A DNA stretch of 64,000 nucleotides, taken from positions 4,061 through 68,060 of the IMG/VR virus record IMGVR_UViG_3300012920_000031. The stretch is one strand, 5' to 3'. The position numbers and the translations under genes were made by a program. The notes under the pieces are model-generated. The model had not been told where the DNA came from, did not search any database, and worked only from the letters and a program-made list of their open reading frames with translations. Numbering within the stretch: the stretch's first letter is position 1; every line of letters starts with the position of its first letter. This stretch comes from a virus. This document shows positions 2,925-59,200 of the stretch, in pieces.

Positions 2925-3252
2925 AGTCCTCTAAATCCATTTCAATTAAATCATATATATTCTGCTTGTCAGAGTCTGTAATACCTAAGGCTTTCATAAT
3001 GTCGTGACCATTTTGAATATCTTTGTTTGCTCTGTTGAGTTTTACTTTGCCCATAACTTGGGCGTGTTGTTTTACTTTGTAAATAACTTTCATCATATCT
3101 GGGTCATTCTCTAAATATAGTTTTGCCAACCCTGCAAACCAACTAACCTGAGTCAGATTGTCATTCCTTATTCTCAGCTTCAAGTCTGCAGAAGTCTTTT
3201 CAAACACAGAGAAGACAAACTTCACTACTTTATTGGGATGGTGCTCTTTCAT
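2917..3252 (-). CDS. Hypothetical protein
   Basis: 111-aa ORF, translationally coupled to neighbours. Confidence 0.6.
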   Translation of the reverse strand: MKEHHPNKVVKFVFSVFEKTSADLKLRIRNDNLTQVSWFAGLAKLYLENDPDMMKVIYKVKQHAQVMGKVKLNRANKDIQNGHDIMKALGITDSDKQNIYDLIEMDLEDYE

Positions 3253-4286
3253 CTTGATAAGATATGTGTGCTGCTTTCATTCATTCCAGCTGGCGTTTGT
3301 CTTATAATTTTGGCTTTTTGTCTAAAATCTTTTAGAGTTCTAGCTCCAGAGTATGATAATCCAGATCTAATATTTTGATGCAAGTCCAGTAATATATTGC
3401 TGACACTACCCTTGTATGGTACTGTAGTGGCAACCCCTTCTAGTGAACTAGTCTTGCCTCTCCATGCAACCTGTGCCTCTCGGGATGCCATGCCTCTGTA
3501 CGCTTTATACTTCTGACCTTGTGCATTCTGAAACACTTGTCCTGGTGACTCTTTAGTTCCTGCTAAAAGCGAGCCTAACATTACAAAGTCTGCGCCGGCG
3601 GCGAAACACTTAACTATGTCTCCCGCGTTTTTTATTCCACCATCTGCGACCATCACGGCCGTATCAGATACCTGGTTACAATCATATACTGAATGAAAAG
3701 TAGGCACGCCATGTGCGGTTTGAATGCGAGTACTGCAAATACTGCCACCGCCGACTCCAACCCTGATAACATCTGAACCCCAATCTTGCAAATCGACAAA
3801 AGCCTCAGCCGTTGCCACGTTTCCTGCCATAATACTAACTCTGTTAGCAAATTTATCCTTTAAAGTTTTGATTGCCCTTTCAACATTTGTATGATGACCA
3901 TGAGCAACGTCGATACATAATAAGAAAGCACCATTTTTTATAAGAGCATCCGCCCTTTCTATAAAGTCATCAGTAACACCAATCGCAGCTGCGGCTGTGT
4001 TTGGTGGTACCTGTCTCAAAAGATCCACTTGTTCTTTTATAGAATTATACCTGTGAATTATTCCAAAACCTCCATGGTTTGTCATAGTGGTTGCCATCGT
4101 CGGTCCTGTTACTGTATCCATTGGCGATGAAATAATTGGTAGAGCAAACTTCCTATCATTTATTTCTGATGTGAGATCGACCTCTTTCCTAGATTTAATG
4201 TCTGATTTCTGAGGTACAATCAATACGTCGTCAAATGATAATGTCTTTTGCAATTTCTGCACCTGGACCTCCACTTTCTTCTTCAT
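3249..4286 (-). CDS. IMPDH/GMP reductase family enzyme lacking CBS domains, probably GMP reductase
   Basis: [51 protein letters not shown]. The IMPDH flap RY dyad is absent. Confidence 0.85.
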
Positions 4287-5633: not shown

Positions 5634-8600
5634 TTATGCTAATAGCTTAAACATCTTTCTCATACTAAAAGTGGAAAAACCCCACTGCTGATTATAATTC
5701 AATCTCGCCATGTATGGTCGATTGATGTGAACCACATCTTTATCGGGGTCGACACCCCAACATCTAATTACTGTTGTTTCATTGTTATCATCAATAACTT
5801 TTACAACATAAAAGTTTTTACCATTTTTGGACTTCTTCAATTTACACTCTCTCGGTATAAACCATGTAACACCAAGCGATGGATCAAACTCTGAAATTGG
5901 TGGTATATAAAGTTCATCTAGTTTCTGCCTGACTCTTGGTGTAACCACAGCGTTTATAGGAAACACCCCTGTCAGATTGACGAGCTTTTCTAGTTTTTCT
6001 TCTTCGGACCAATCTCCCAGAGACGCAAATTTTTCAATGTTTTCTTCTAAGTTCTTTTGTTTTCTAGGTCTGTCTTTACAGACAGCTTGCCAAAAATGAT
6101 AAAGGCCAGTAAATCTATCATCAACTAAATCATTTAGTGCCTGAGCTTCACAAAGGGCTATGAGTGACTTTTTGTTTAGTTTCGAATAGATAATCTTTTC
6201 ATGAAATAAAAAATCTTCGATCTTGTTGAATGGTCGATGTTCAATTATCTGTTCAATCGCTTTTTCACCCAGGCCCTTGATTGACGTGAGCGGTTGAATT
6301 AGTGTGTTTCCGTCTTCTGTAATTTCCCAAACTGATCCAGAGGTATTTACATTTAGTGCACGAACATTGAACCCAAGTGACTTTGCAGTTGCAATGGCTC
6401 TTTCCTTTCTACTCTCTGGCTCTTTATCCAAGAATGCGGCTAGCCACTCGGCCGGATAGTAGTTAAGAAGATAAGCACATTGATAGGATAATACACAGTA
6501 GGATACAGCATGTGACTTGTTAAAGCCATAGCCTGAAAAGTATTCAAAAGTTTCCCAAAGTTCTCTTGCTTCATAATCTCTCATTCCTTTCTCGACGCAA
6601 CCCCTGCGGAATTTGTCGAAGATCTTGTCTTTCTCAGCGGAAGCGGCACCAGTGCCCTTCTTAGTAAGTAGTTTTCTGAGCTTGTTGCCTTCATCCAATG
6701 TCAGATCTTTACCCAACTTGTGAGCCAACATAGCGATCTGTTCTTGAAAAATAAGGAAACCGTAAGTTTCTTGCGTCACTTCTCGCACAGTCTTGTTGAT
6801 GTATTCGATATCTTCCGGATTCTCCTTTGCCCCAATGTACTTCTTGTCCACATTTGCAGACAGTGGGCCTGGACGGTAGATAGAAGTAATCGCAGCCAAG
6901 TCAATGATGTTGTCAGGTTTGGCGTTCTTGCAAAACGATTGTGCTCCGGTTTCCGTGAATTGGAAGATGCCGGCCCACTTGCCTTTGTGGAAAATGTTTT
7001 GCCAGACATCCTTGTCTTCTAGATCAATGACCTCTGGGTGCAAGTTCTTGTCGTAGTAATCTTTGATGTCTGCGAATGTTGGATTAGTCATTCCATGATG
7101 ACGTCGAAGGATGCGTTCAATGGCACCTTCAAGCATTCGTAGTGAAGCAAGACCCAGAATATCAAACTTGATAAAACCCATCGGCTCAAGATGGCGCACG
7201 TTCTGACCCTCAGACCATGGTGTTTGCCTAACTCCTCCTGAGTTGATTAGGGGCATCCACTTATCCAGGTTTTCACCCACAACAACACCACCTGCATGTC
7301 GAGAGGCAGAACGTGTCTGTCCATACAGTTTTTCAATGTGAGTCTTGATATGCGGATACTTTGCTAAGAACTTTTGCAGAGACTCTGAGAACTCCATCAA
7401 CTCCTCGAATGTTGGTGCATACACACCAGCAGTAATACCGTGTTTCTTCTTTGCTAGTGGTGTTGCTTCATATACCATTTTACTGGTCACGTTGTTCACC
7501 TCAGTGAACTCAATACCATAGAACTTTGAAATATCTTTGATAAGAGATCGAAGTTGCAGTGTATTCCAGTTAGTGATCGGGACAACAGAATCATCACCCC
7601 AAAGTTCAATAAGAATCTCCTTGAGGACCATAGGGTCGGACACATCATAATCAATATCTGGGTAACCCGAGCCACCCTTAGTCAAGAATCTTTCGAACTG
7701 AAGTCCGTATTTGATAGGGTCGACCTGTGTAATGTTTAGGACATACGCAACGAGGGAACCAGCAGCAGAGCCGCGGCCGGCTCCGACAAGTTGTCTATCG
7801 ACGGCAACGTCAGCAATAGCTTTCATTGTTAGAAAGTATTTCGAAAAACCCCTGTCCTCGATAACTCCAACCTCATACTTGAGGCGATCCACATACTCTT
7901 GGTTGTTGCCGAGACCGAGTGACCGGAGACCCTCAACGCAGAGGGCAGCCAAGGTCTGACCAGCAGTTGATCCCTCTGGGACAACAAAGTTGGGTAAACG
8001 GACTTCGTTGTCTGGCAAGAAACTTTCAATCCTCTCATGTGCAATCTGGTGTGTCCTCTTGATCGATTCGAGTACCAAGTTATCATCATACTTTGCTCCA
8101 CATAATTCTGAATACTTCTTGTATGATTCGAACATCTGGTCACCATTCTTTGGATAAAGCTCGTAACCGATTTCCTCGACTGATACGGGAAGCTCGTCAG
8201 ATAAATAGTCTGGTTTACCTTTACCTAGCCAACCTAAACGCTTGTAAAGCTCACGATCTTTCCACACGTCTGCATTATAATAGTGTGAATCTGCAGTAGA
8301 GATAAGGTCAATACCAAATTCTTGATGCATCTGAATGATGTAGCGATTGAGTTCATGTTGCTCTGGGACATTGTTCCACTGAAGCTCCCCGTACCATCGG
8401 TCTCCGAAAATGTCCTGCATCTTCTGTGTAGTTTGGCGCATTGCCCCGAGAATGGCATCAGGACCAATGTCTCGGTTCTCCCAGTAGTTGCCAGCATAGA
8501 CGCCGCCGAGACAAGCCGAAGCAGCAATGACACCTTCATTATGTTTCTTGAGGAGAGCATAGTCAACACGAGGATAACGATAGAAGTTATCTCCACTGTA

Positions 8601-9071
8601 GGAACGTGAGATCATCTTGAATATGTTCTGCAAACCAGTCTGGTTCATAGCCAGCAAGATAAGGTGACGGCGGCGGTTGAGGACAGACTTGATCTTCTTC
8701 TTGGAGGCGCCCTCGTCTTCAACCGTAGTGCCAGAGTTGTCTGCCTCGTAGTCGGATTTCTTTTTTGAAGCATTCTTGATCTCTTCGTACTCTTCCTTCC
8801 ACTTCGCAACGGACGGAATAAAGTACGCCTCACAGCCAAAGATAGGCTTAAACTCTTTGCCGGCCTTCTTCATCTTCTTAGCGTGCAGCACTTGCCATGC
8901 CAAACCATTCATGTTGCCGTGATCAGTGAGTGCCAGGGCATCCATACCATTCTCGTAAGCAAAATCCATATGCTCTGGTGGATATCCAAGTGCATCAAAC
9001 GGAGACCCCGCAACTGAATGTGCGTGCAACCCCACAAATGGGATAGAGCTTTCTTTCCTAGAGTTCATCAA
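5634..9071 (-). CDS. dnaE: DNA polymerase III alpha subunit (family C)
   Basis: PHP (LHAHS, TDHG, DSH), GRGSAAGSLV, PDIDYD, KFDILGL, YGFNKSHA, C-terminal OB-like region. Confidence 0.96.
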   Translation of the reverse strand: MMNSRKESSIPFVGLHAHSVAGSPFDALGYPPEHMDFAYENGMDALALTDHGNMNGLAWQVLHAKKMKKAGKEFKPIFGCEAYFIPSVAKWKEEYEEIKNASKKKSDYEADNSGTTVEDEGASKKKIKSVLNRRRHLILLAMNQTGLQNIFKMISRSYSGDNFYRYPRVDYALLKKHNEGVIAASACLGGVYAGNYWENRDIGPDAILGAMRQTTQKMQDIFGDRWYGELQWNNVPEQHELNRYIIQMHQEFGIDLISTADSHYYNADVWKDRELYKRLGWLGKGKPDYLSDELPVSVEEIGYELYPKNGDQMFESYKKYSELCGAKYDDNLVLESIKRTHQIAHERIESFLPDNEVRLPNFVVPEGSTAGQTLAALCVEGLRSLGLGNNQEYVDRLKYEVGVIEDRGFSKYFLTMKAIADVAVDRQLVGAGRGSAAGSLVAYVLNITQVDPIKYGLQFERFLTKGGSGYPDIDYDVSDPMVLKEILIELWGDDSVVPITNWNTLQLRSLIKDISKFYGIEFTEVNNVTSKMVYEATPLAKKKHGITAGVYAPTFEELMEFSESLQKFLAKYPHIKTHIEKLYGQTRSASRHAGGVVVGENLDKWMPLINSGGVRQTPWSEGQNVRHLEPMGFIKFDILGLASLRMLEGAIERILRRHHGMTNPTFADIKDYYDKNLHPEVIDLEDKDVWQNIFHKGKWAGIFQFTETGAQSFCKNAKPDNIIDLAAITSIYRPGPLSANVDKKYIGAKENPEDIEYINKTVREVTQETYGFLIFQEQIAMLAHKLGKDLTLDEGNKLRKLLTKKGTGAASAEKDKIFDKFRRGCVEKGMRDYEARELWETFEYFSGYGFNKSHAVSYCVLSYQCAYLLNYYPAEWLAAFLDKEPESRKERAIATAKSLGFNVRALNVNTSGSVWEITEDGNTLIQPLTSIKGLGEKAIEQIIEHRPFNKIEDFLFHEKIIYSKLNKKSLIALCEAQALNDLVDDRFTGLYHFWQAVCKDRPRKQKNLEENIEKFASLGDWSEEEKLEKLVNLTGVFPINAVVTPRVRQKLDELYIPPISEFDPSLGVTWFIPRECKLKKSKNGKNFYVVKVIDDNNETTVIRCWGVDPDKDVVHINRPYMARLNYNQQWGFSTFSMRKMFKLLA

Positions 9072-9255
9072 CTAAACCTTTCATTTCTTCTAGAGTTTCC
9101 ATAAGGGCTGCTTTTACCGCTTCCCTATCAATATCGAACATCTCCATTATAAACCTTTTCTGGTCGGATGTCAAGTTTATAAAGTTATCTGGTAAGCCAG
9201 CGTGTGCTTTTATCAAAGCTGGCATCATATTATAAGTATCTTCAATTTTATTCAT
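9058..9255 (-). CDS. Hypothetical protein
   Basis: 65-aa ORF overlapping both neighbours. Confidence 0.55.
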   Translation of the reverse strand: MNKIEDTYNMMPALIKAHAGLPDNFINLTSDQKRFIMEMFDIDREAVKAALMETLEEMKGLVDEL

Positions 9256-10105
9256 TTTCTATCATTCTCCTATGGTGGTAAGGTTTCATAAATTCTCTTG
9301 TGGGTCTAGGTATCTTCATTTCCGAAGTGTAGTATTGCTGTAAGCTGTCCCAACTATCTAGGTCATAATACTCAGGCACTTCAACTTTCTTATCTATTGA
9401 TATTACATCAACATTGAATATTTTGTCAAGAGTAAAATGACGACTAGACCATCTTTCTTGAAAGGGTATATCTCTATTACCACCACTACACTGATTCTTT
9501 ACATGATGTTTGAATTTTGGCCAGTCTTCCGGGAAAAATGTAAATCCCAAATATAAACCATCTCTTGCTGTTTGTCCTTGGTGGGATAAGAAGAAAGATT
9601 TTGGTCCCCTTATGGCGTCTCTATGATCTCTCACAATCCCTGTATGATAAAGGCCGTACGGAAAAGAAACAAAATATTTTGTTGGTAGCACCCACTGACT
9701 CATTTTGTCAGATATTTGAAATGCCATGAGCGCGCCGTGTAGTGCTGACCAACCCAAACTATCTCTTCTATCTCTATCTTTTTGCGATAAAGGCGTGTAG
9801 AAAATAGGTATCCATTTTTTATGATAATCCTTATTCTTGACAAAATCTTTTTGTTCAAAATATTTCGGTGACATGACATAATCTCCCAATCTTTGCTTTA
9901 CTATGGGAGCGATATCGTCACCGCATACAACCCATATTGAATCACACCCAGCGTATGCGCATTCATATATGGATCGTTCAACAGCTAGCATACCCTGTCT
10001 AATGGGTTGTAGGTAATCTGGCCACGGAAAATCAAATGATTTTTTTCGGCCGGTCAAGGGCACAATTCCTGCTACGTTCCTACCTTTTGGTGCTTTCTTC
10101 AACAA
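9248..10105 (-). CDS. Divergent sugar-nucleotidyltransferase-fold protein
   Basis: AGIVPLTG...PDYLQPI...AVERSIYECAYAGCDSIWVV resembles the NTP_transferase N-terminus; canonical GxGTR/PK motif is degenerate. Confidence 0.55.
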   Translation of the reverse strand: MLKKAPKGRNVAGIVPLTGRKKSFDFPWPDYLQPIRQGMLAVERSIYECAYAGCDSIWVVCGDDIAPIVKQRLGDYVMSPKYFEQKDFVKNKDYHKKWIPIFYTPLSQKDRDRRDSLGWSALHGALMAFQISDKMSQWVLPTKYFVSFPYGLYHTGIVRDHRDAIRGPKSFFLSHQGQTARDGLYLGFTFFPEDWPKFKHHVKNQCSGGNRDIPFQERWSSRHFTLDKIFNVDVISIDKKVEVPEYYDLDSWDSLQQYYTSEMKIPRPTREFMKPYHHRRMIENE

Positions 10106-10832
10106 TTTCCTCCATAGAAAGATTCATGATCTTGACATTTTCTGTGTCTGCATATACGTTGTTGTCTTTTTGAAAGATTAATCTGTTTACATGCTTCACT
10201 TTTGGTTTTCGATACTTTGGCTTTCCACTTTTATAGTGTTTCATTAGACTACCATAAACCCCAACAGAGGTCAAGTATCTTTCGACCGTGAACCTAGCCA
10301 TTGTATCTGAAAAATCAAAACAATTTATTTGTTCTTGAGTCAATTCTGATTCTACTATGCAGTCTGTAATATATGATGAGCCGTCTACTCGATCTGATGA
10401 ATAAAAGTGTATTTGCTGTGCGAATCCCGGAGTAGATATATTTGGTTGTATCTGTGTTCTAGGTGGGCCTAGTGTTGAAAGTTCAAAATCATCTAGTACA
10501 AGATAGGTTGTTTCGCGAGTTTCTTTAATTTCGTTTTCAAGTTGAATTCCCGTTGAATCAAACACAAAACACTTTTCAAATTTATATTTGTAAACTACAT
10601 TTTGGGCTGTTATTTTTAGTTCATTGTCAACAATTCTTATAGTTTCTGTTTTTTGAAAAGATAATAATTTTGACAACAAACCTAACATGAAGTTTAGCTT
10701 TGGCCAAGCTTCTACGTTTTCACGGTAAAATAAAGGGGGGCTCTCGCGAGTTGGTATGAAATAACACTCATTTATAAGGGCGTAGTGTACAGACTCCAAC
10801 GACGAACCAATGACAACCTTGTCTAGTAGCAT
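10080..10832 (-). CDS. Hypothetical protein with degenerate Rossmann-like N-terminus
   Basis: DKVVIGSSLESVHYA resembles the DVVVIGxGxxG dinucleotide-binding start. Confidence 0.5.
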   Translation of the reverse strand: MLLDKVVIGSSLESVHYALINECYFIPTRESPPLFYRENVEAWPKLNFMLGLLSKLLSFQKTETIRIVDNELKITAQNVVYKYKFEKCFVFDSTGIQLENEIKETRETTYLVLDDFELSTLGPPRTQIQPNISTPGFAQQIHFYSSDRVDGSSYITDCIVESELTQEQINCFDFSDTMARFTVERYLTSVGVYGSLMKHYKSGKPKYRKPKVKHVNRLIFQKDNNVYADTENVKIMNLSMEEIVEESTKR

Positions 10833-12868
10833 ATTCTAAGTCTATAGTCATATCTTGGGTTAGTGGATGCAAACTGAAAACCCGGATGTAACACATTCAT
10901 CCTCATACTTGATGAAGGTGGTGCTAAACAAATCTCATCAAGGATTGACATAAGGTCATCATACATTTGCTGTTGGTTTCTTGATAACTGAAACACTGAA
11001 CCATTACCAGCATCAGCATAGTTGTCCCAAACCCTAGAATTTCTCTCTGCAAATGCATAGAACTTTAAATTTGGAGTTGCTTCGAGGGCGTCCCAAACAA
11101 CATCCGTATTGACCCGTGGTACTAGAAAAGATTGCGCAAATTCGTCACTAAACAGTATTATGATCCTATCTGCATTTGGGCGCCAGTTTACCTTGAAAAA
11201 TTTCAGCTCAGGCACTGACCCCATCCTGTTAGACCAAGTTGCACTTGCAAAATCATATTGAACATTTCCAGAAATATTTTGTAATGCGAGAATAATTGCA
11301 TCCTTGAATTGCTCATTACCTGTCTGGTTATCAAATTGCCCTACATTTGCAAAAGCAGTTAGAAAATCTTCTAAATCTGCAATATCAGACTGCAATATCA
11401 GCATCTCCTGTATTCCCCCGGGACCAGGCGCAGCTTTAGGGCCAACAATCAGTCCCCACTTTAGCTTATCCTCTGCAGAAAAATCTTGAGCAAACCTATT
11501 CATAGCCATCCTAACAGCATTTATATAATTCTCCATAGAGCCTGACCAGTCAACTAAGAAAAGAATATCAGTTTCTGGTATCTCTTCTCCGTAATCAACA
11601 ATACCGTCACAATCGTTGTCGGCGCCGTCGCAAATCTCTTCACTCGGCAATGTTTCACCTCCGCAAAAATCAACGACTTGGGCGCCCTGAGGAGTGCGGC
11701 CATACCACTGACCTCTATTGCAAGTTTGTTCTCCCATTGAGCATACTCCTACGTTTAAAGTGCCCTCAGGGCCGGTGTAACACTCTCTCGTTATACGTTC
11801 ATCGGTAAGCAAGTCACAATCTTCGTCAAAGTTATTACAAACCTCAGCGTCTATAGCTAGACCCACTAGAGGATCGCAAGGGGTATTTGGAGAGATCTCT
11901 GGCACCCAATGACATGCAGCAAAACACTCCGTCATTTGGGTAACTTCACACTCTTCTGTCAAACATTCGCAGGTTTTAAATCCCATACCACAAGTAAGAG
12001 GGGATTCCATACATGGAACTAAAGCTCCAACCATTTCAGGAGGGCATTGGCAGTTTAGACCCTCATCCACTAGGTTATCGCAATCATTATCCTCACCATC
12101 GCACTCTTCGTCAGCTGGACGTTGAGCTGTGCAGCCAATCCAATCTCCATTTCCACAAATCTCCAGACCTGAATTGCAAATGGTGGTACACTCTCTTATC
12201 AGTTGCTCGTCTACTGCACCATCGCAATCATTATCAAGGCCGTCACAAATATCCTCCGGCACTTGCCCACAGCCACCACAAGCATTCAGTTGGTTTTCAT
12301 CCACATTCCCGTCACAGTCGTTGTCGTTACCATCGCACACCTCCTCCTCTTCAAAGCAGGTCACACACTCTCCATAATACAAACGTCCTTTGTCACACCT
12401 GACTTGCTGAGTTCCAGATGTGCCGTCTATATCGCAATCATAATACATGGTGAAATCCTCGTTGATACCAGGAGGACAATCAAAAGCATGCGTACAACCT
12501 GTCTCTTCAATAATCTCGGCAGGAGGACAATTTGGGTCTCTGTTTCTGTCACAGGGATTCATGTTCTCATCACAAATATCTAACACCGCATACTTTGCCT
12601 GTATTTCCACACCTCGCGGTGGACAATACCAAGTTTGTTGTTGGCAACAGTTCGGGTTGCAGTCGCAAAACCTAGGATGGGTATTTTGCAAATCCGCGCA
12701 GGGGTCGACCCAAGCGTCAACCGTAATGTCCGGTACTTGAACTACCTGAACATCAACTGATGTCGAATCTGAGGTTAGAGTCCTGATACTTTCAGCATCT
12801 AAGCCTCCAGTCGTATTGCTGCTGTCTGAGCATGCAAATAAAAAAAGTAAAAGTGTTATTTTCTTCAT
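10823..12868 (-). CDS. Lipoprotein with Cys-rich CDGxDNDCDG repeats and C-terminal vWA domain
   Basis: Start reassigned to ATG 12868 (TGATG overlap with thyX, GGAG SD). Lipobox MKKITLLLFLFA|C; five E.CDG.DNDCD-type repeats; MIDAS DILFLVDWSGSM and ILFSDE. Confidence 0.85.
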   Translation of the reverse strand: MKKITLLLFLFACSDSSNTTGGLDAESIRTLTSDSTSVDVQVVQVPDITVDAWVDPCADLQNTHPRFCDCNPNCCQQQTWYCPPRGVEIQAKYAVLDICDENMNPCDRNRDPNCPPAEIIEETGCTHAFDCPPGINEDFTMYYDCDIDGTSGTQQVRCDKGRLYYGECVTCFEEEEVCDGNDNDCDGNVDENQLNACGGCGQVPEDICDGLDNDCDGAVDEQLIRECTTICNSGLEICGNGDWIGCTAQRPADEECDGEDNDCDNLVDEGLNCQCPPEMVGALVPCMESPLTCGMGFKTCECLTEECEVTQMTECFAACHWVPEISPNTPCDPLVGLAIDAEVCNNFDEDCDLLTDERITRECYTGPEGTLNVGVCSMGEQTCNRGQWYGRTPQGAQVVDFCGGETLPSEEICDGADNDCDGIVDYGEEIPETDILFLVDWSGSMENYINAVRMAMNRFAQDFSAEDKLKWGLIVGPKAAPGPGGIQEMLILQSDIADLEDFLTAFANVGQFDNQTGNEQFKDAIILALQNISGNVQYDFASATWSNRMGSVPELKFFKVNWRPNADRIIILFSDEFAQSFLVPRVNTDVVWDALEATPNLKFYAFAERNSRVWDNYADAGNGSVFQLSRNQQQMYDDLMSILDEICLAPPSSSMRMNVLHPGFQFASTNPRYDYRLRICY
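11590..12345 (-). repeat. Protein-level Cys/Asp repeats (Cu-binding_MopE-like putative metal-binding motif)
   Basis: EVCDGNDNDCDGNVDE, DICDGLDNDCDGAVDE, EECDGEDNDCDNLVDE, EVCNNFDEDCDLLTDE, EICDGADNDCDGIVD. Confidence 0.8.
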
Positions 12869-13572
12869 CAATGCTCCATTTTGTGTTTCATATAAGATCC
12901 TACAGAGTGAGGGAAATACTGCTTTGCGATTTTGAGGCAAGCTTTAGCAACCTGTTGAATTTCCCATTGAGCACCCTCATGGACCCTAAGAGAAACAAAC
13001 TTCAGCAAGTTGTGTAAATTCACAGTGCCAAAGTACTGTGTATAAAGGTTTTGTGGTAAGACACCGCGGGCTTGTTCTCGACATACACCAGAAGATAATA
13101 AATTATCAAAAAGTTTCAAACACTCTTTGTGGTGCGCCCTCACCATTTCTGAAGCTAGCCCAGATACAGGTAGTCCTGACCTATTGTATTCCACTATAGG
13201 ATCCACTAGCTCTTCTGTACTAGCTTGCCTATTGCTTTTGTGCTGTGTTCTAAACCGTTTTGGTTCGTAAAACTGAATGTCTACTGAGGTATAGCGTCTG
13301 CTAATTTCATTATAGGCCCAAGTACGGTGTCGATGATGCTGGGAACGTATAAATAAAGGCAAAGTGAATTTATAAGTCAACGCACAGTGTTCAAACGGGG
13401 AACTGTGATTGTGTTTCATCAGATAATTTATGAGTTTGATGTCTTTTTCGTCGACGTCTTGCTTTTCTGATCCGAAAGAGACCCGCGCAGCATTAACAAC
13501 TGACAGATCTGTACCCATATGTGAAACGTATTCAACCGCACCTATATCGTCCCCAAATAAGTCAACTTTCAT
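12868..13572 (-). CDS. thyX: Flavin-dependent thymidylate synthase
   Basis: AARVSF, HSSPFEH, RHR-x7-SRRY, EQARGVLP, AQWEI. Confidence 0.95.
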   Translation of the reverse strand: MKVDLFGDDIGAVEYVSHMGTDLSVVNAARVSFGSEKQDVDEKDIKLINYLMKHNHSSPFEHCALTYKFTLPLFIRSQHHRHRTWAYNEISRRYTSVDIQFYEPKRFRTQHKSNRQASTEELVDPIVEYNRSGLPVSGLASEMVRAHHKECLKLFDNLLSSGVCREQARGVLPQNLYTQYFGTVNLHNLLKFVSLRVHEGAQWEIQQVAKACLKIAKQYFPHSVGSYMKHKMEH

Positions 13573-13867
13573 CAGGCCTCCTGTAGACTCCTACTACATA
13601 GTTTTCCAAAATCATATAATGAGTTTTGTCTTTCAAGGTTACCTCTTGAATCATAGATTTATCTACAACAATCCTATTGTTATCGAGGTTACCATATCGA
13701 AGATGGCGGAACTGCTTATCGCAATCTGCGGCGATGTCAATCACTGATGCTTCAATATATTGATCTTGTTCCGGGCTATAGTCCTCTGGTAAGATTACGC
13801 CAGTGGATGTTTCATTCTTTTTTACATGTGGTACAATAAGCAAATGCCTATTTACCGGCTTTAGCAT
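13562..13867 (-). CDS. GroES-like co-chaperonin
   Basis: MLKPVNRHLLI...ETSTGVILPE mobile loop; start reassigned to ATG 13867. Confidence 0.75.
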   Translation of the reverse strand: MLKPVNRHLLIVPHVKKNETSTGVILPEDYSPEQDQYIEASVIDIAADCDKQFRHLRYGNLDNNRIVVDKSMIQEVTLKDKTHYMILENYVVGVYRRPDES

Positions 13868-13874
13868 TTCCACT

Positions 13875-14147
13875 CTAGAGACCATTGATCCTCCCCACAG
13901 ATCGCTGACACTTGTTCACATAGTCTGTTAAAATTTCCATATCTGTTTCAGATTTGTATAGTCTATACGCTTTTACAGCCAATCTCATTTCTTCTTTTGT
14001 AAGCCACCCGTTTTCATTATAGGATTCTCGTAAATCCTTTCGCTGTTCTTTGAATGGCTCCATTGCATCTTCAATGGCAACAAATGTCTTAATGTAATTT
14101 GCGAGGTGTTCCTCTTTGGTTAGTAGTCTATCGTCGTTAGAACTCAT
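13875..14147 (-). CDS. Small helical dsDNA-binding protein (T4 DsbA/GapR-like)
   Basis: LANYIKTFVAIEDAMEPFKEQRKDLRESY...AVKAYRLYK pattern and 90-aa size. Confidence 0.5.
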   Translation of the reverse strand: MSSNDDRLLTKEEHLANYIKTFVAIEDAMEPFKEQRKDLRESYNENGWLTKEEMRLAVKAYRLYKSETDMEILTDYVNKCQRSVGRINGL

Positions 14148-14178: not shown

Positions 14179-14207
14179 ATAATAGTATATTTTATCAGGT
14201 TTGTCAA
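14179..14207 (-). promoter_or_regulatory. Sigma70-like promoter
   Basis: TTGACA-17 nt-TATTAT. Confidence 0.75.
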
Positions 14208-14213
14208 GGGTTT

Positions 14214-14528
14214 TTAAATAGAAAAACTTTCTCCGCAGCCACAAGTTCTTTTTGCGTTAGGGTTTACAAATTTAAATCCAGACTGATTAAGTTCATCTAC
14301 AAAGTCAATCTCTGTACCCATAAGATATAGAAAACTTTTTGGGTCAAGATAAATCTCTATGTCCTTATCAGTAATGACCCTATCATTGTCCTTTTGATTA
14401 TCAAACAATAATTTATAAGTAAAGCCAGAGCACCCGCCGCCCTGTACAGCGGCGCGCACACCTGTCTCCTCTTTTTCTAAAAGCAAGGTTTTCATTTTGT
14501 TGGCTGCAGATTCAGTTAAAGTAATCAT
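14214..14528 (-). CDS. iscA: A-type Fe-S cluster carrier (IscA/ErpA/HesB family)
   Basis: GGGCSGFTY and NPNAKRTCGCGESF. Confidence 0.93.
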   Translation of the reverse strand: MITLTESAANKMKTLLLEKEETGVRAAVQGGGCSGFTYKLLFDNQKDNDRVITDKDIEIYLDPKSFLYLMGTEIDFVDELNQSGFKFVNPNAKRTCGCGESFSI

Positions 14529-18915: not shown

Positions 18916-20043
18916 TCACTCATTAGACGGGGAATCGTCTAACTCGTAAAAATCAGAAGCATTGCCTTCTCTATTACTGAACTTCATAATAACATCTTCG
19001 TCCATAATTGTCAAGACAGTTTTTCTGAAATTTTCATCCTGAAGCTTGTCGAGCCATTGCTTACGCTGGAACTTTGTTTCTGTTCCGTCGTCATGAACAA
19101 TAGCGAACCAAGCACCAGACTGCTTCAGTCGCTCAGAGATTTGGATCGCGTCGAACCAACTTTCCTCATCCTGAACACCTACAGCATCGTCACCCCAAAG
19201 AATCTTGAAGTTACAAGTTCGACCGGCTGTCCCGAAACGAGACTTTTCCAGCTTTACTTTCACCTCAGATCCAATGCGGTAACCATTATCATCAACAATA
19301 AAACTTGCCTTGGCTTTTCTAGCTGTAAGCCAGATTCGTAGTGAATACGAGTAAGGTAAAGCTTTTCCACCAGGCGTTACGTACGGTGTCGTCATTGCTT
19401 GTGCAGGTGTTCTTGCACCCAAGTTTGTCTTTAGTTGGTTCAAAACCAGCAACGTTGCATTAGCATCTGCAATCGGCACAATGAGCTTTGACATACCTTT
19501 CGCTAAGATTCTAGGCTTTACGGCCATTGACGACTGAGGGTTGAAGTCACCCTCAATGTCTGATATCGAAGGAGTCAAGGCTAAAGAGTCCCAAATAAAC
19601 AACCACTTGTTTCCTGTGGCTAGTAACTCTTCGATTGTCTCTAGCACAAATTCTACTGACTCTGCCTGAACATACAAGAGCTTTTCGAGATCGCAATCAG
19701 CACGCTCTAAAAAAGAAGGGTCAATAGCTGACTCTGAATCGAAATAAACAACGTCGATCCCCATCTTTTGAGCGTTTGCTGCAATCTTAGCTGCCATAAA
19801 TGACTTACCAGTTGCCTCAAGCCCTGCAATTTCAGAAACTTTACCAACTGGGATTCCCGCTAATTTGCCCTTACAGACAATAGAATCTAACCATCGAGAC
19901 CCAGTAGGGATCCACTCATTGACTTCAGTTGGGTTATTATCCTGAAGTGAGTGAGCGACTTCTCTGCCCGCTTTCTTGTTGATGATGCCCTTGATTGCTG
20001 AAATGTCAAGGGCGCCTTTTTTTAGTTTGGTTACTTTAGCCAT
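18916..20043 (-). CDS. recA: RecA/UvsX recombinase
   Basis: IPTGS, GLEATGKS Walker A, DSE, WDSL, LNQLK, TPGGKAL. Confidence 0.93.
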   Translation of the reverse strand: MAKVTKLKKGALDISAIKGIINKKAGREVAHSLQDNNPTEVNEWIPTGSRWLDSIVCKGKLAGIPVGKVSEIAGLEATGKSFMAAKIAANAQKMGIDVVYFDSESAIDPSFLERADCDLEKLLYVQAESVEFVLETIEELLATGNKWLFIWDSLALTPSISDIEGDFNPQSSMAVKPRILAKGMSKLIVPIADANATLLVLNQLKTNLGARTPAQAMTTPYVTPGGKALPYSYSLRIWLTARKAKASFIVDDNGYRIGSEVKVKLEKSRFGTAGRTCNFKILWGDDAVGVQDEESWFDAIQISERLKQSGAWFAIVHDDGTETKFQRKQWLDKLQDENFRKTVLTIMDEDVIMKFSNREGNASDFYELDDSPSNE

Positions 20044-20882: not shown

Positions 20883-20911
20883 ATAATATCTTATTTTTTA
20901 TTCTGTGTCAA
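20883..20911 (-). promoter_or_regulatory. Sigma70-like promoter of ssb-recA
   Basis: TTGACA-17 nt-TATTAT. Confidence 0.75.
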
Positions 20912-21755
20912 GTTTTATTTGCTGAATTTTTGGAGAAAATAATTCCACATAAATGTAGTCATCTTCATATTGTGTTGGATAGATCCCGAAGGAGACCTTT
21001 CTTTCTTCAGTGATTTTTGATTTTACATTATTTGTTATTTTTCTAAACAAATTTTCTTCTGTCCTGAGCTTCTCTTCATTTATACCATAATAATACACCA
21101 TTTCAACTTGATTTTCAAGAGGAAAAAACAACTTTTCTGATTCTCCTATTGATCCCAGTCCAATGGTCGTGATTCTGCAAGATTCTTTTGGTCTTTTGAA
21201 TGTTGATGTTATAGGCTTTGTATTCTTGAACACATCCATCATGTAATAAGTTGACGTAAATACATGATTTATTTGATTGTAATAATCAAATACATTTGTC
21301 GATCCAGCTAAATCTTCTAAGATGATGTTAGACACCAAGCATATCTTATCAAATAAGCCACTTCGAGTAAAGTTTTGTAATATCCCCATAACAGAACGCT
21401 CATGTAAGACTTTTGTATCAGATAGTACATCTGTTTCGGGAACAAAATAAACAATATCCATTTTTATGTCTTTTTTATGCAAATGCTCTAATGCGCGCAA
21501 GGTCAATCCGGTTGAATCTGATGCTCCGCACAAAAAAACTGTACAATGGTCATTTATTTTATCTAACCACTTATGAAGCCGTGACAGATCCATGGATTCA
21601 TACTCTTCAGGGCCCTGCTGTACTGGTAGGCTAAACTTGAATTTAGAAGTTTTATTATTTTCGTTTGAAATGTAGTAGCATTCATACGTAGGGTATTCTG
21701 AAAGTTGTTGCACCACATTGCAGCCTGCAGTTCCTATGCCTAAAAGTTTTTTCAA
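20898..21755 (-). CDS. Divergent tubulin/FtsZ-superfamily protein (PhuZ-like)
   Basis: LLGIGTAGCNVV (T1 loop), FLCGASDSTG (degenerate GGGTGS/TG), P...E, LVSN, YNQINH. Confidence 0.65.
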   Translation of the reverse strand: MKKLLGIGTAGCNVVQQLSEYPTYECYYISNENNKTSKFKFSLPVQQGPEEYESMDLSRLHKWLDKINDHCTVFLCGASDSTGLTLRALEHLHKKDIKMDIVYFVPETDVLSDTKVLHERSVMGILQNFTRSGLFDKICLVSNIILEDLAGSTNVFDYYNQINHVFTSTYYMMDVFKNTKPITSTFKRPKESCRITTIGLGSIGESEKLFFPLENQVEMVYYYGINEEKLRTEENLFRKITNNVKSKITEERKVSFGIYPTQYEDDYIYVELFSPKIQQIKLDTE

Positions 21756-22882
21756 AGATTCAGCTCCTTTAAGTTAGAGAATGTTTTGCCAACCTTGCAT
21801 GTGCTGGTAAAATTACCCCATCGCGTTTTCTCAAATTGCGATTTGATATCTCGTAGCATTATAACATCTTCTTGGCACATGTCAAGTATAATTGAGTCAT
21901 GGAGTGTAAATGCTATGGTAGATTTTTTACCTTTGAGCATTTTTTGAATTTTATATGCGTTTTCCAATACTTGGTCCGACGTTGTTGATTGTAGTAGATA
22001 GTTTTGTGCTTTTCTTTCCTCCACCACTAGTTTACGACCAAATGGCGTTGTAAGGACGCGGTCTTCAGAAAAGTAAAAATCTCGAAAAATTGTCCGCGAA
22101 AAAATTTGGTCAAATCGACTTTTTGAGTTCGAAGGATTATACAGCCAGGCGAACAACTCTATCTTGGCCTGAGACCTCTGAATATTATTTTGAAATACAT
22201 TTTTCACTACCCATTCGTGTATATCTCCTTGAGGCTGTTCTTTTCCAGACAGTGCCATTAGCATTCTGACCTCTGCGGCATTTAGATCTAGTTCTACAAA
22301 CGCATCGTTTTGAGGTCTTAATAATTGTCTCTGTTCTTTCTTTAAAGTTAGAACCGGAATTGAATCTCTTCTTGTTGTTAGCCTGCCGGTGGCTGAGCCA
22401 AAGATGTTGTATAACACTCTTCCTTTCCTATTTCCAAACTGTACAGTCTGTCTTGCAATGTTTGATGTCAAGACATGTATTTTATGCAGAATCTCATAAT
22501 CCTCTTCTTTTTTTGTCGTCTTATAGAGATTCTCCAGGGCTTGCTGTTTTATCTGAAACCACTTCACTAGTTGATGCTCTGGTAATAGATCGAAAAAACA
22601 CTGATCCTGTAGACTTACCTTTGCAGATATAGCTGCTTTTTGGTGTGCCTGCATTTTTTTACTGTATAAGATAAAGGCTTCAGGATCTTGACAGTACGGA
22701 GACAAATCCTCTTCTTTCACAGAAAGAAAAAGATAGTGAAAATTTTCATCTTCTAACAAGGGCGAGTGTTTCCAAGCTAGCGTATACTGATTCGCAGTTG
22801 ATTCTACGTCATCAAATAAAAAAGTATTGTTATGAAATATGCCGCGGCAGTTATCTTTTATATCTAGAGTTTGAAGAATCAC
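21752..22882 (-). CDS. Minimal family A DNA polymerase
   Basis: TGRL, motif A DLNAAEVR, motif B RSQAK...F..LY, TPFGR, NYLLQST, motif C HDS. Confidence 0.8.
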   Translation of the reverse strand: MILQTLDIKDNCRGIFHNNTFLFDDVESTANQYTLAWKHSPLLEDENFHYLFLSVKEEDLSPYCQDPEAFILYSKKMQAHQKAAISAKVSLQDQCFFDLLPEHQLVKWFQIKQQALENLYKTTKKEEDYEILHKIHVLTSNIARQTVQFGNRKGRVLYNIFGSATGRLTTRRDSIPVLTLKKEQRQLLRPQNDAFVELDLNAAEVRMLMALSGKEQPQGDIHEWVVKNVFQNNIQRSQAKIELFAWLYNPSNSKSRFDQIFSRTIFRDFYFSEDRVLTTPFGRKLVVEERKAQNYLLQSTTSDQVLENAYKIQKMLKGKKSTIAFTLHDSIILDMCQEDVIMLRDIKSQFEKTRWGNFTSTCKVGKTFSNLKELNL

Positions 22883-24096
22883 ATAAAATCCTTTATGGTT
22901 ATGTTTTGATAGGAGTTTATTCCTTTTTTATTTTCGTATATTGTTTTTAGATATTCTGAAGTATACAATCCAATTTTCCCTAAAGCCGGCTTTACACTGT
23001 AACCATTTTTATTATATTTTACACCATATATATCTTGTAAGTCAAGAACTAATTGCTTTCTTTCTGATAATTCATCAGGCGTAATATTTATCCCTAGTTC
23101 TTTGTGTCTTATTTCGACCAATTCTTGTATCCACCAAGAGACATCATACTTAGCTTCTATTTGTGGACGTAGTTTAAGAGTTCTCTTAGTCTCTAAGGAT
23201 GTTGAATCTGTTTGGGCCTTTTCGAAAAAAGGATTCTGATCGACAAACTCGTTGTAAAGACCAGTAAAAAATCTCTGTATACTATCCAAATCATCATAGT
23301 GAGTTTTAGTTCTGAAAAGTCTAGAGAGTATATTTTCTGTGCTTGTATCTCTAAAATATTTTAAAATGTGATTTTGCATAACTGAGGATTCAAGGTTGGC
23401 TATCAATCTTGCTGGATAGTTTTTGTCCACGTAAAAGCCAGCTTGATTTGCGACATCAGCATAACACTTAAATTCCTTTGTTTGTACAATCTTACCTTTT
23501 GTAAAATCTTGATCATAGGGCTGGTTTGATAGTTCTATACATAAACCAGAAACATTGATAGGACAATCTAAAGAAAGAAGAAACCCTGATTTTGTTATGG
23601 GCGCAAGTTTTAATTGTGTATATAATTCTTGTCGACAATGCTTCATAAAATCACCGAAGTTGTAAATACTACGCTGGACAGAAGTGATTCTAGACAGCAA
23701 AGACTCTGCTATACGTGTTATATACTCTGAATAAGAAGCTTGAAAATCTACGTGAGCTTTCTTAGGTACCAAATTTTCCAAAAAAGGAGGAAAACTAATC
23801 GATGTTTCTTGTACTATTGAAAGGTAAGAGTCTCTAAACTGATTGAATGCGCTTACAGCAAAAGATACAGCATAAAGATTAGGGTTTGCATAATCACCAA
23901 AATTTGACATGGTGGAATCTTTGTCTTCCGCCAATAACACTACAGGCTCAAAGTCAGCATTATACAATCCATAGTTTGGCTTTTCATACCAAAGGTCTAT
24001 GAAATCTACTTCTGGAATATCCATGTTTTGTTTGTACTTTTTTCTTTCCATGAATGCCAACCTAGAGGGTAAACCATTACTTCCTAAAAAATCCAT
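22879..24096 (-). CDS. Hypothetical protein
   Basis: 405-aa ORF coupled to neighbours; no recognised motif. Confidence 0.6.
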   Translation of the reverse strand: MDFLGSNGLPSRLAFMERKKYKQNMDIPEVDFIDLWYEKPNYGLYNADFEPVVLLAEDKDSTMSNFGDYANPNLYAVSFAVSAFNQFRDSYLSIVQETSISFPPFLENLVPKKAHVDFQASYSEYITRIAESLLSRITSVQRSIYNFGDFMKHCRQELYTQLKLAPITKSGFLLSLDCPINVSGLCIELSNQPYDQDFTKGKIVQTKEFKCYADVANQAGFYVDKNYPARLIANLESSVMQNHILKYFRDTSTENILSRLFRTKTHYDDLDSIQRFFTGLYNEFVDQNPFFEKAQTDSTSLETKRTLKLRPQIEAKYDVSWWIQELVEIRHKELGINITPDELSERKQLVLDLQDIYGVKYNKNGYSVKPALGKIGLYTSEYLKTIYENKKGINSYQNITIKDFM

Positions 24097-56207: not shown

Positions 56208-59200
56208 CTATATGTTTACGTGCGCATAGCCGTTTCTTTTCTCGATATTTATCTGCATATCTACACAGTCCTTTAGACTGTCTAAATGCGAAATAAGAAG
56301 AACAGTCTTGAAATAACCCTTGACCATATCTAAAATACGTACAAAGCCTTCCATATTTTCTTCATCGAGAGCAGTTCCTGGCTCGTCAAGTATAAATAGG
56401 TCGGACTTTGGTAAACTGGACACAGTTAAGAACGCGAGGCGAATTGCCATGCTTGCAATAGTCTTCTCTGCTCCGGACCCCATCTCCAATGGACGAGGGT
56501 CGTGACTCGGATGTTTAATGAAGATGTCTAACTTGTCCTCGTTGTTAGAAATGAATACCTCAAACTCTACAATATTAGTCAATATCTTAGATATCTCTTG
56601 ATTGATATAAGGCAACCTTTCTTTAATAATTTCATAAGAAACTCCGTTAGGATGACAACAGACCATAAAAAGATGATAAGCTGCAAAGTCTTTTTCTAGT
56701 TCACGGAATTCTTGCTGCTGCTCTTGTGTGTGCGATAGCTTCTGCTCAGAAGACCCGTGCTTCTTATGCAGCTGCATAATCTTCTGCTCGCATAAGTTCA
56801 TTTCTTTCTCTTTATCTCTGGACTGTTCTTCTAGTTTCTCTCTGTCTGACATCAATTGTTTTAAATTTTCAATTGCTTCTTTGTTCTCCTCATACTCTGT
56901 TGCTTTGTTTTTAAGTTGATCAAGTTCAATCTGTTCCTTAAACAAGAGACTATCTGCTCGTTCAATAATTAAATTACTAGTTGTTATCGAGTTTGCAAGA
57001 TTATCTCTTTTTTCAATTAGAGCATCGTATTTCTCTATGTATTTATTTACCTTGGTCATTTCTTCATGAGAGATATCTTCGCCAATGGCATTGATTTTTT
57101 GCACAACTGAAGATATTTCTTCTGTTTTTGTTTCGATGGTCTCCCCAATAAGTGGATGACAACTAGTACAAACCTTATCTTGCTCTGTTACTAACAAACT
57201 TTTCTGCAAAGATAAACTTTCTAAAAGTAAAATTAACTCACTTAACTCGTCATTGACCTTTGTAAAAGACTGTTTCTTTTTCTTATACTTTTCTATCTCA
57301 AAATCTTTTAAGAAGTCTTCAATCTTTTCATACTTGGTTTTATCCTCATCGATGTTTTTTTGCGCGTCAGTTTTCTTGGCGTTTATCTGTAGGATAGCTT
57401 TCTCTTTTTGCGATATCTTGTTAGCCGTCAAAACAGGATCGATAATTTCTGCAGGTACTGAAGATATCTTGTCTTCCAGCAGGCCAACTTCTTTCGTCAA
57501 CTCTGTCATCTCTTCCTTAAGAGAAATACAGATTGCCTTGTTCTTTTCAATGGCCAATTCGCTTTTGATAATTTCAGCCTTGATATCTTTAATATTTGTA
57601 TCAAAGTCGATACCCTCTAGACGCCTTAAGGCAACCTTTATATCGGCCGAAGCTTCTTTTGCCATCTTAAACTTCTTATCAAAGATTTCTAGGTCTAAAA
57701 ACTTTGCAAGAAACTCTTTCCTCTTAGTCGAACCTTCATTGATGAATGAGAGGGAGTCTAACTGAGAAGCCATTGAAGTTGCTAAAAAGTCTGGTAGTGT
57801 GCCAAAATACTTTCTTACATTCTTGTCCGTATCTTGCCTAGACGTGCCATTTAAGCCTGTGTGGTTACCAATAGAGTCTTGCGAGTAAAACTCTAGGTCA
57901 GTTGTTGCTTCTTGCGTCTCAACGCCCTTTAAGCGCTTTGTATACTTATTAGACTTACGTTCAATAATATAATTTGTATCATCTACTTTGATTGTTGCAG
58001 TTGCGGTGCAATTATCTTTATTTTGATTAATAATGTTTAGATTTTTACGAATAGATTTGGAAGTAGAGTTATACATAGAATAGAGTAAAGTATCTACAAT
58101 AGAAGACTTACCCGAGTAATTCTTTCCAAAAATACCTACAATACCCTCTAATTTTGTAAAGTCTATAGTATTACCTTCTCCATAATTGAACAGATTGTCC
58201 CATTCTAAACTTTGAAGAGACCAGTTAACGTTCCGCATGACATCTTCATTTTCTTCAATCTGCTTATTGAATTCCTTATTTAGTTCATAGACTTTCTCTA
58301 AAACTTCCTCTGTCGCTTCATACTCTTTTAGGTATTCGGACATTAGAGCTTCCTGAGTTTTCAGGTCTCGCAAGTCTTGTTTCTGCAAGCCTTCAGGAGC
58401 AGCAACTTTGATTTGTTTACCGGCTGCTCGATTAAGATAAGTCACTGACTCTGGATTGTACTTAAACTTTGCTATATCTACAGCCTTACGGACCTTGTCT
58501 AAGGATACATTACTTTCAGACACAATACGAAGCCTAGCTCCCTCTGGTGGTTTCGCCCTGGGGAGATTACCCTTCTCGCTTAGAGTAAGTGTGACGAAAG
58601 GCTTGGGGTTGTCAAAAGTAATAAGTTTAGTAGTGAATTCATCCTTGCTTTCAATATCCCAAAGCAAATAGCCTTTGTCCAAAGTCTCTCCAAAGTTTTG
58701 CTGTACTGTTGAACCTGCATACCAAATGCGACCTTCTTTGTCTAGCTGCTGAGTCTTGTGAATGTCTCCTAGGAAACCAAAGTCAAACTCTTCAAAGATT
58801 TCGATACTATGGTCTCCCCCTAGAGTCCAATTACTGTCTGTCTTTGACTTGTCAATAGCTCCGTGATACAAAGCAATGTTGATAGCATCATAGTCAGATG
58901 GTTCTACCCAGTTCTCCTCGTCGAACACAGATAAAACATTCAAACAAAACTTATCATTGATCTTTACCTCTCCAGCATTCTTCAGTAGAATAAGGTTAGG
59001 ATTATTGATAGCTTTTGCAATAGGAGACAAAGCATCCTGTCTTGACCCATTGCGAAGGTTACCATCGTGATTACCTAAGATAACATAGGTCGGTGCGATG
59101 GCAGCTAAGTTCTCGAAGAAGTCCCTGCACATATCAACGAACTCTGGTGAGATCTGTGTCTTGGTGTGTGCAATATCTCCGCAGTGAATAATGTAATCCA

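Follow-up and report, generated by a model that had tools for sequence, protein, structure and literature searches.

Two described systems come closest to the gene analysed here. CglD of Myxococcus xanthus is described as a surface lipoprotein acting in adhesion at focal-adhesion sites; in the published description it has 1,130 amino acids, 46 cysteines, epidermal growth factor (EGF)-like modules and a COMP/TSP3 domain with twelve DxDxDG repeats, and the substitution D656N in its C-terminal β-I-like von Willebrand factor A (vWA) domain impairs the gliding-dependent formation of flares at the swarm edge (10.1101/2023.10.19.562135). Among phages, T5 Llp and T1/phi80 Cor are reported as superinfection-exclusion lipoproteins, and Llp is described as a small lipoprotein, made early by its phage, that sits in the outer membrane's inner leaflet and from there binds the receptor FhuA (PMC9586334; 10.64898/2026.03.26.714494). 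We examined a gene at positions 10,823–12,868, minus strand, of a 64-kb stretch (hereafter the window) of the virus record IMGVR_UViG_3300012920_000031, which encodes a lipoprotein precursor with MopE-type repeats and a vWA head. The gene belongs to a lytic marine myovirus that has not been cultured.

A lipid anchor, a flexible tether, a stalk stabilised by disulfides and calcium, and a head that bears a MIDAS (metal-ion-dependent adhesion site) together make the build of an envelope-anchored binding protein. We give an even chance to the reading that this is an envelope protein made early in infection, which binds a ligand in the envelope or on the surface of the host through its metal site. 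Phage MopE/vWA lipoproteins constitute a large family, undescribed so far, that combines two known kinds of protein, the phage envelope morons and the bacterial vWA lipoprotein adhesins. A literature search of main texts found no description of them.

Architecture of the lipoprotein and its vWA head

The gene and the parts of its product map as follows.

10823–12868, minus strand, stop included: gene for the MopE-repeat/vWA lipoprotein precursor (P0001), 681 amino acids, from the open reading frame (ORF) call and at least 120 full-length homologues at 47–84% identity
12830–12868, minus strand: signal peptide with lipobox, MKKITLLLFLFA-C13; residues 1–13 are MKKITLLLFLFAC, with C13 predicted to be lipid-modified
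12719–12829, minus strand: acidic linker rich in Ser and Thr, residues 14–50 (SDSSNTTGG...TSDSTS), predicted disordered (predicted local distance difference test, pLDDT, 32–39) and hypervariable (30% mean pairwise identity)
12344–12718, minus strand: Cys-rich, β-rich N-domain, residues 51–175, with 15 Cys, all invariant; pLDDT 75 when modelled alone
11585–12343, minus strand: stalk, residues 176–428, with 30 Cys; five MopE-type CDGxDNDCD(G)xxDE units, with short β hairpins rich in disulfides after each
12296–12337, 12206–12247, 12062–12103, 11798–11839 (degenerate) and 11594–11632, minus strand: the five MopE units
10925–11584, minus strand: vWA domain, residues 429–648, from an AF2 model (pLDDT about 90), Foldseek and VIA-align
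11537–11551, minus strand: MIDAS motif DxSxS (D440-W-S442-G-S444), with the invariant acidic residues E519, D523, D575 and E576 further downstream in the vWA domain
10826–10924, minus strand: variable C-terminal tail, residues 649–681, 26% mean identity, with a conserved RYD...C-Y at its end

Within the window this is the only ORF to fit the lipobox pattern and also the only long Cys-rich one (48 Cys). On the strength of that pattern, C13 is the predicted site of lipid modification, and the lipobox cysteine is visible in nearly all full-length homologues from the 73 related IMG/VR loci that we retained for comparison. In the wider family a strict lipobox expression was passed by 45 of 60 cluster representatives, chosen to have at least 330 amino acids and a Met start; six of the 15 misses show a lipobox by eye and nine appear truncated at the N terminus. 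The mature protein contains 47 cysteines, 46 of them invariant across 34 homologues (48–84% identity), and C647 and C680 are the only two within the C-terminal 260 residues. Its composition is very acidic (69 Asp and 51 Glu versus 12 Lys and 26 Arg), for a net charge of about −82.

The N-domain was compared with 48,161 chains using VIA-align; the best Z was 3.5 and none reached 5, so no fold was assigned to it. The MopE units of the stalk begin at C178, C208, C256, C344 and C413. Four are canonical, the fourth in order (CNNFDEDCD) is degenerate, and three carry a perfect DxDxDG. P0001 matches PF11617 above the gathering cut-off (44.7 bits versus 27, E = 1.5e-11, three stretches scored), and 13 of 15 family representatives match it at E ≤ 0.01. 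The first-pass annotation, made from the letters of the window, had described a phage gene with a lipobox, a Ser/Thr linker, five CDGxDNDCD repeats and a vWA domain with an intact DxSxS. All of these are present and, to an extent well above chance, conserved in the homologues, the repeats as four canonical units and one degenerate unit.

The head is modelled at a pLDDT of about 90 over residues 430–648. Foldseek against the PDB returned an E value of 3.6e-7 with integrin β I-like domains ranked first, and VIA-align with model residues 417–653 gave Z scores of 18.9 for the vWA domain of TFIIH p44, 17.4 for integrin β-6 and 17.1 for the αM I domain (root-mean-square deviation 2.4–2.9, 178–187 residues aligned). 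The Pfam VWA profile (PF00092) stays below its gathering score for P0001 (16.6 versus 23.8 bits); it matches 14 of 15 family members at E ≤ 0.1, with a best E of 5.4e-6. Judged from the model, the vWA fold is clear despite the sub-threshold Pfam score. D440, S442, S444, E519, D523, D575 and E576 are invariant in the 34 homologues and invariant or nearly so in a divergent set of 15 sequences, and DxSxS is found in 57 of the 60 representatives. Among the folded parts the head varies most (56% identity, versus 64% for the stalk and 62% for the N-domain); the C-terminal tail, like the linker, is hypervariable.

How far the likeness to integrins extends was considered separately. A profile of the domain searched against the PDB placed integrin β-8 first at a marginal E of 0.0075, aligning the DxSxSM and (I/N)WRxxAxR(L/I)4xD segments, and E519 presumably corresponds in position to the MIDAS/SyMBS (synergistic metal-binding site) Glu of integrin β-3. 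Pfam Integrin_beta (PF00362) matched none of 15 family members at E ≤ 0.1, and P0001 did not match it at E ≤ 1. We set aside a head specifically of the β-integrin type: Foldseek and the PDB profile favour it, but the VIA-align Z scores do not separate it from other vWA domains and PF00362 is silent. The resemblance to integrin β is real; membership of that family is not established.

Operon, phage clade and distribution of the family

The lipoprotein gene is the fourth in an operon that lies behind a sigma-70-like promoter.

14179–14207, minus strand: sigma-70-like promoter, TTGACA-17-TATTAT, in the gap before orf90
13875–14147, minus strand: orf90
13562–13885, minus strand: gene for a GroES-like protein
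12868–13572, minus strand: thyX
12874–12877, minus strand: GGAG Shine-Dalgarno core of the lipoprotein gene, 5 nt before its ATG and within the end of thyX
10080–10832, minus strand: orf250
9248–10105, minus strand: orf285
9058–9255, minus strand: orf65
5634–9071, minus strand: gene for DNA polymerase III alpha (PolIII)
9146–9174, 9400–9429, 14179–14207, 18986–19014, 20883–20911 and 21858–21885, minus strand: six sigma-70-type sites

In the window the gene order is dnaB, ribonucleotide reductase (RNR), (iscA), orf90, groES, thyX, the lipoprotein gene, orf250, orf285, orf65 and polIII. The lipoprotein ATG (12868–12866) overlaps the thyX stop by one base (TGATG), and the gene is translationally coupled to thyX; orf250 in turn overlaps its 3′ end by 10 nt. 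These two overlaps and the upstream promoter point to co-transcription from a host-type promoter, and the site at 14179–14207 probably drives orf90, groES, thyX, the lipoprotein gene, orf250, orf285 and orf65 together. Of 42 distinct upstream regions from related loci, 25 have a comparable promoter some 61 nt ahead of orf90, and none of 43 related regions has a sigma-70-like promoter directly before the lipoprotein gene (700 nt upstream). Exact TTGACA-N16-18-TAWWAT sites occur six times in the window, where 0.26 would be expected; every one is on the coding strand, at 9–22 kb. They are confined to the replication module and look like a set of early promoters for the host polymerase. An ACATAAA word seen before some genes is not enriched in the window (19 matches versus 15.9 expected). 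Downstream, orf250, orf285 and orf65 have no family match in Pfam or PHROG and no visible export signal; the lack of such a signal makes the products of orf250 and orf285 probably cytoplasmic. In the clade these two genes (9248–10832, minus strand) always lie downstream of the lipoprotein gene, and they diverge faster still than it does.

The parent record spans 68,060 bases and is rated 37% complete by CheckV. The window has a guanine-plus-cytosine (GC) content of about 40% and carries all of its long ORFs on the minus strand. PHROG matches identify a large terminase, portal, prohead protease and T4-type major capsid protein, together with a tail sheath, tail tube and baseplate hub, and the head, tail and packaging genes occupy 27–54 kb. 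The replication and nucleotide block, at about 3–22 kb, holds genes for GMP reductase, dUTPase, PolIII, ThyX, a GroES-like protein, an IscA-like protein, a class II-like RNR, DnaB, an exonuclease, UvsX and a single-stranded DNA-binding protein. These matches bear out the earlier placement of the lipoprotein gene among replication genes and away from virion genes. Related contigs reach 175–193 kb, three of them rated 96–100% complete. The myovirus, marine and uncultured, has a full genome of about 180–190 kb, of which the window is one fragment. Searching of sequencing runs found the sequence in 15, all marine metagenomes; one run, probably the source, shares 0.96 of its words and a second 0.30, and the remaining 13 share small word fractions only, which are no evidence on habitat.

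No entry among 50,697 GenBank phage records exceeds 47% identity to the capsid protein or 31% to PolIII, which places the phage in a clade without a cultured member among GenBank phages. The best capsid matches are an uncultured megaphage, Flavobacterium phage immuto (45%) and, equally near, Microcystis phage Mel-JY01. A weak, short family-A polymerase-like gene (21752–22882, minus strand; PF00476, E = 3.4e-11; phrog_17) coexists with the full PolIII gene. The combination fits the ‘divPolA1’ group as its source outlines it, namely immuto-like phages of 155–190 kb with divPolA1 plus a regular polymerase (10.1101/2024.04.26.591309).

Other genes of the window, all on the minus strand, include the GMP reductase gene of the IMPDH family (3249–4286; PF00478, E = 2e-100), the divergent GroES-like co-chaperonin (13562–13885) and an IscA/HesB-type iron–sulfur assembly protein (14214–14528) that adjoins RNR. 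In the tail region, a 923-residue protein (24096–26867, minus strand) has no family match and is a candidate receptor-binding or distal tail protein; it varies extremely, being only 43–46% identical in the closest relatives, despite PolIII identities of 91–94% there.

The lipoprotein family is large. A word-seeded protein search returned 2,448 proteins at E ≤ 0.001 among 8,000 scored candidates, and the 120 homologues listed (47–84% identical) are nearly all full-length, unnamed and drawn from marine or other metagenomes. In IMG/VR, at least 392 of 590 candidate stretches encode a relative. A vWA profile run against clusters at 50% identity matched 643 at E ≤ 1e-3, of which 245 pass ≤ 1e-10 and 77 pass ≤ 1e-30. 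Proteins of the 643 clusters have about 260–790 amino acids, and the domain invariably stands at their C terminus. Ten cluster representatives that we looked up carry no informative name, and one scoring protein, a tapeworm fn3 protein (P0219), was discarded as a spurious repeat match. The nearest ESM Atlas clusters (0.94–0.98) are labelled 100% viral and include short forms of 423–426 residues (MopE plus vWA) and of about 265 residues. The 50,697 GenBank phages yielded no match, even to the vWA domain alone at E ≤ 0.1, plasmids yielded none, and a scan with NCBIfam found nothing.

Two peptide patterns were scanned against 185,579 genomes, one per species, a method that distant cellular relatives would escape; the sole match was contig PBLX01000048.1 in a ‘Legionellales’ metagenome-assembled genome (MAG). 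That contig has full phage synteny, the MAG has further contigs with phage capsid genes, and no other MopE match occurs in it, so we read the match as mis-binned phage DNA and reject ‘Legionellales’ as the host. The 1.9-Mb MAG (‘Legionellales bacterium’, G001) contains at least three phage-like contigs (C20, C7 and C48): one with replication-module synteny, the 84.5-kb PBLX01000048.1 (our locus L075), and two with T4-type capsid genes (69% and 33–39% identity).

Both flanking neighbours of the lipoprotein gene are kept in 46 of the 73 related loci, one flank in 13 (mostly cut by contig ends), and 14 show another context. Loci were also found through PolIII: with PolIII identity of at least 81%, 29 of 29 carry the gene in the slot from thyX to orf250, and in a sister clade (PolIII 63–68%) 17 of 17 lack it over at least 4.5 kb upstream; the count leaves aside 28 of 74 loci with too little upstream DNA. 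The vWA profile matches exactly once in each of five clade genomes, three of them 96–100% complete, and in none of five sister-clade contigs (27–30% complete). In one sister-clade locus (L130:4141-4630) the slot between thyX and orf250 holds a small ORF that begins like a signal peptide and has motifs resembling those of lytic transglycosylases (ES...GxxQVM...YNAG); from this one locus, the slot seems to collect envelope-acting accessory genes.

Loci with another context span several phage lineages and 35–55% GC. In three T4-like phages (L059, L064 and L072; 47–55% GC) the homologue adjoins an exonuclease gene. L059 and L064 have SbcD-like, UvsX and gp32-like genes close to it as well, and gp46/47-like genes are among the neighbours at the T4-like loci. 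Being present throughout its sub-clade, missing from the sister-clade slot and recurrent among the replication and recombination genes of other marine phage lineages, the lipoprotein gene is a mobile accessory (moron-like) gene of early/replication regions, never seen in a virion block. In the window itself, a 1,032-residue ORF (56208–59306, minus strand) matches an SbcD-like nuclease over residues 1–350 and an SbcC-like ATPase over residues 287–1028. The two subunits are apparently fused here, whereas the T4-like loci L059 and L064 encode them separately.

Across 33 loci with all five markers, mean pairwise identity is 88% for RNR, 80% for PolIII, 75% for ThyX, 56% for the lipoprotein and 45.5% for the orf285 product. 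The block is mosaic: between loci L007 and L014, RNR and thyX are 100% identical, the lipoprotein 86%, orf285 35% and PolIII 76%, and between L009 and the window PolIII stands at 93% and the lipoprotein at 58%. The lipoprotein follows thyX (rho 0.74) more closely than it follows PolIII (rho 0.30). Cassette-like swapping and exceptional divergence were both rejected, as the gene follows thyX and orf285 diverges more.

Function, host and alternative explanations

If the protein does act on the envelope as we propose, host RNA polymerase would transcribe its operon early, and the precursor would be exported, lipidated and oxidatively folded. The mature protein would then be anchored in the envelope of a Gram-negative-type host, where a calcium-stiffened stalk would hold out the vWA head and the head would bind a carboxylate of an envelope or surface ligand via its MIDAS metal. 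The surface of the infected cell would thereby be altered to the phage's benefit. We favour a form in which a receptor or surface structure is masked or disabled, which would exclude superinfection and save progeny from loss on debris. As an outcome we rank adhesion of the infected cell second.

Several observations weigh against this proposal. The promoter scan matches a consensus and is no measure of timing, and no RNA run is recorded among the 15 sequencing runs that hold the sequence. Only 12 residues of signal peptide precede the cysteine (position 13), which is short. PHROG gave no match at E ≤ 0.1, the Llp and Cor families included, the best being phrog_7371 (function unknown) at E = 0.36. 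The gene evolves fast, yet orf285 in the same block evolves faster. If a protein masks the receptor, one might expect it to vary in step with the receptor-binding protein. The 923-residue tail-module protein, the only one examined for co-variation, shows none: it is far more variable than the lipoprotein, is 45% identical in a relative (G005) whose lipoprotein is 84% identical, and follows the backbone. No evidence points positively to any host, so no ligand can be named.

The same stalk-and-head build would also suit a protein that masks no receptor, with the infected cell displaying the head outward, sticking to cells, particles or prey and so bringing progeny to new hosts. Known adhesins are built in this way, the MIDAS residues are invariant, the head is the most variable folded part (56% versus 62–64%) and the lipoprotein does not co-vary with the tail-module protein, all of which fit. 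Many lipoproteins face the periplasm, however, and what a lytic phage would gain is a matter of speculation that lacks a known direct precedent; we hold this explanation to be unlikely. It is unlikely, to our mind, that the proteins amount to a purely viral integrin-like receptor family of abundant marine phages in several lineages, displayed by infected cells as a calcium-stiffened stalk with a MIDAS head that actively engages other cells, surfaces or a host surface machine. We regard with similar reserve the idea that such a family is an independent viral radiation of the β-integrin-like module, which has so far been met in animals, in unicellular relatives of animals and in bacteria of the deltaproteobacteria type. 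The conserved lipobox argues against a protein released at lysis or borne on the particle, where it would aid adsorption or decorate the virion. So do its place in a replication operon behind a host-type promoter, far from head and tail genes, and its absence from a sister clade with the same type of virion module. Some virion genes of T4-like genomes do lie outside the main structural block, and vWA proteins are present in many viruses (49 matches in BFVD at E ≤ 0.001), but we think a virion-associated or extracellular role very unlikely. Highly improbable is an auxiliary part in capturing calcium or copper at the periplasm or surface, as the Pfam name Cu-binding_MopE might suggest. A net charge near −82, the repeats of the PF11617 type and the perfect DxDxDG in three of them would agree with it; PF11617 denotes a ‘putative metal-binding motif’, though, the invariant MIDAS head and long stalk suggest protein binding rather than metal storage, and metal-transport genes are lacking nearby.

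The first-pass annotation had favoured a myxobacterium-like host, in which a captured gliding adhesin of the CglD/CglB type would alter motility, adhesion or cell contact and perhaps spread by outer-membrane exchange. The domain logic is indeed that of CglD (a lipoprotein with DxDxDG motifs, Cys-rich EGF-like modules and a C-terminal β-I-like vWA domain with a MIDAS). The nearest cellular ESM Atlas clusters are from Myxococcota, at 0.80–0.83 for the whole protein (0.83 for a TSP3+VWA+MopE cluster) and 0.90 for the vWA part (‘Integrin beta chain VWA’), and heavy Shine-Dalgarno use and sigma-70-like promoters would be compatible with such a host. Set against this, the Atlas scores are leads, given without alignment or E value, and the pattern scan of 185,579 species genomes found no close cellular relative of the vWA domain. 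The homologue loci range from 35 to 55% GC in several lineages, and at about 40% the window lies far below the GC content of cultured myxobacteria; the sequence was met in marine metagenomes only, and Integrin_beta matched none of 15 members. The likeness to CglD stands at the level of architecture, in comparison with the published description, and the Myxococcota look-alikes stay leads. The proposed host was not supported: it is argued from resemblance, all close homologues are viral or metagenomic, the family occurs at loci of 35–55% GC in several phage lineages, and the sole genome match is the mis-binned contig. We consider the myxobacterial explanation distinctly unlikely.

Signals of gene expression bear on the host as well. 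Shine-Dalgarno cores precede 40 of the 59 genes of the window (versus about 11% of random positions) and 117 of 212 genes in the sister clade. In Flavobacterium phage immuto they precede 1 of 53 genes, against a background of about 15%. A Bacteroidota host was thus judged unlikely: immuto is near by its capsid, but the window has the Shine-Dalgarno cores and the six sigma-70-type promoters, signals that, to our knowledge, Bacteroidota lack. These signals argue against a Bacteroidota host only. The C-x-D/E that follows the lipid-modified cysteine recalls what we take to be the lipoprotein export signal of Bacteroidota. A cyanobacterial host was also set aside: psbA (PF00124) is absent from all five clade genomes, three of them 96–100% complete, in a search whose control matches, which is weak evidence against such a host. 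As rough, inferred odds, we would give Myxococcota in the strict sense a small chance, Bacteroidota a smaller one still, and the rest to another marine didermic bacterium.

Envelope proteins encoded by phages decide whether infected cells can be superinfected and how those cells behave; those known so far are small proteins of coliphages. The present family is notable in being large, conserved, single-copy and built like an adhesin, and in its spread among widespread uncultured marine myoviruses. If the head binds a host surface structure, as we propose, it would offer a handle on the receptors and hosts of a phage clade without a cultured member. Should it mediate adhesion, viruses would have in it a new means of altering particle association and cell contact at sea. 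Were the viral integrin-like receptor idea true, infection would rewire cell–cell and cell–particle contact in the ocean, beyond the blocking of receptors.

Comparison with known systems

Against integrin β-I domains (PF00362), the phage head is alike in its top Foldseek rank, the alignment of DxSxSM and the invariant Glu E519. It differs in having no hybrid-domain insertion, no conserved ADMIDAS (adjacent to MIDAS) pair and no α-subunit partner.

T5 Llp is, by analogy, the closest phage precedent for an early lipoprotein that acts on the envelope. As far as the sources describe them, Llp and Cor are phage-encoded lipoproteins, made early and acting on the envelope, and the protein studied here would probably be alike in these respects. 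They are far smaller, and there is no similarity in sequence or domains and no PHROG match between them and the vWA lipoprotein. The vWA lipoprotein gene, set against Llp and Cor, is also not adjacent to a gene for a receptor-binding protein.

The Myxococcota clusters of the ESM Atlas resemble the phage protein in joining acidic Cys/Asp repeats to a vWA domain (scores 0.80–0.90), and are separate from the phage family, which forms its own 100% viral clusters (0.94–0.98). CglD differs from the phage protein, which is phage-encoded and has 681 residues, five units of the MopE type and an N-domain that matches no known fold; the window also has no Glt-like gliding genes. By its published description, CglD shares with the phage protein the nature of a Cys-rich lipoprotein with many disulfides, repeated calcium motifs (DxDxDG), Cys modules resembling EGF and, at the C terminus, a vWA domain with a MIDAS (DxSxS...D), and the two vWA domains are alike in that their best solved matches include integrin β I-like domains. 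Judged by architecture, CglD is the closest described protein of such a build.

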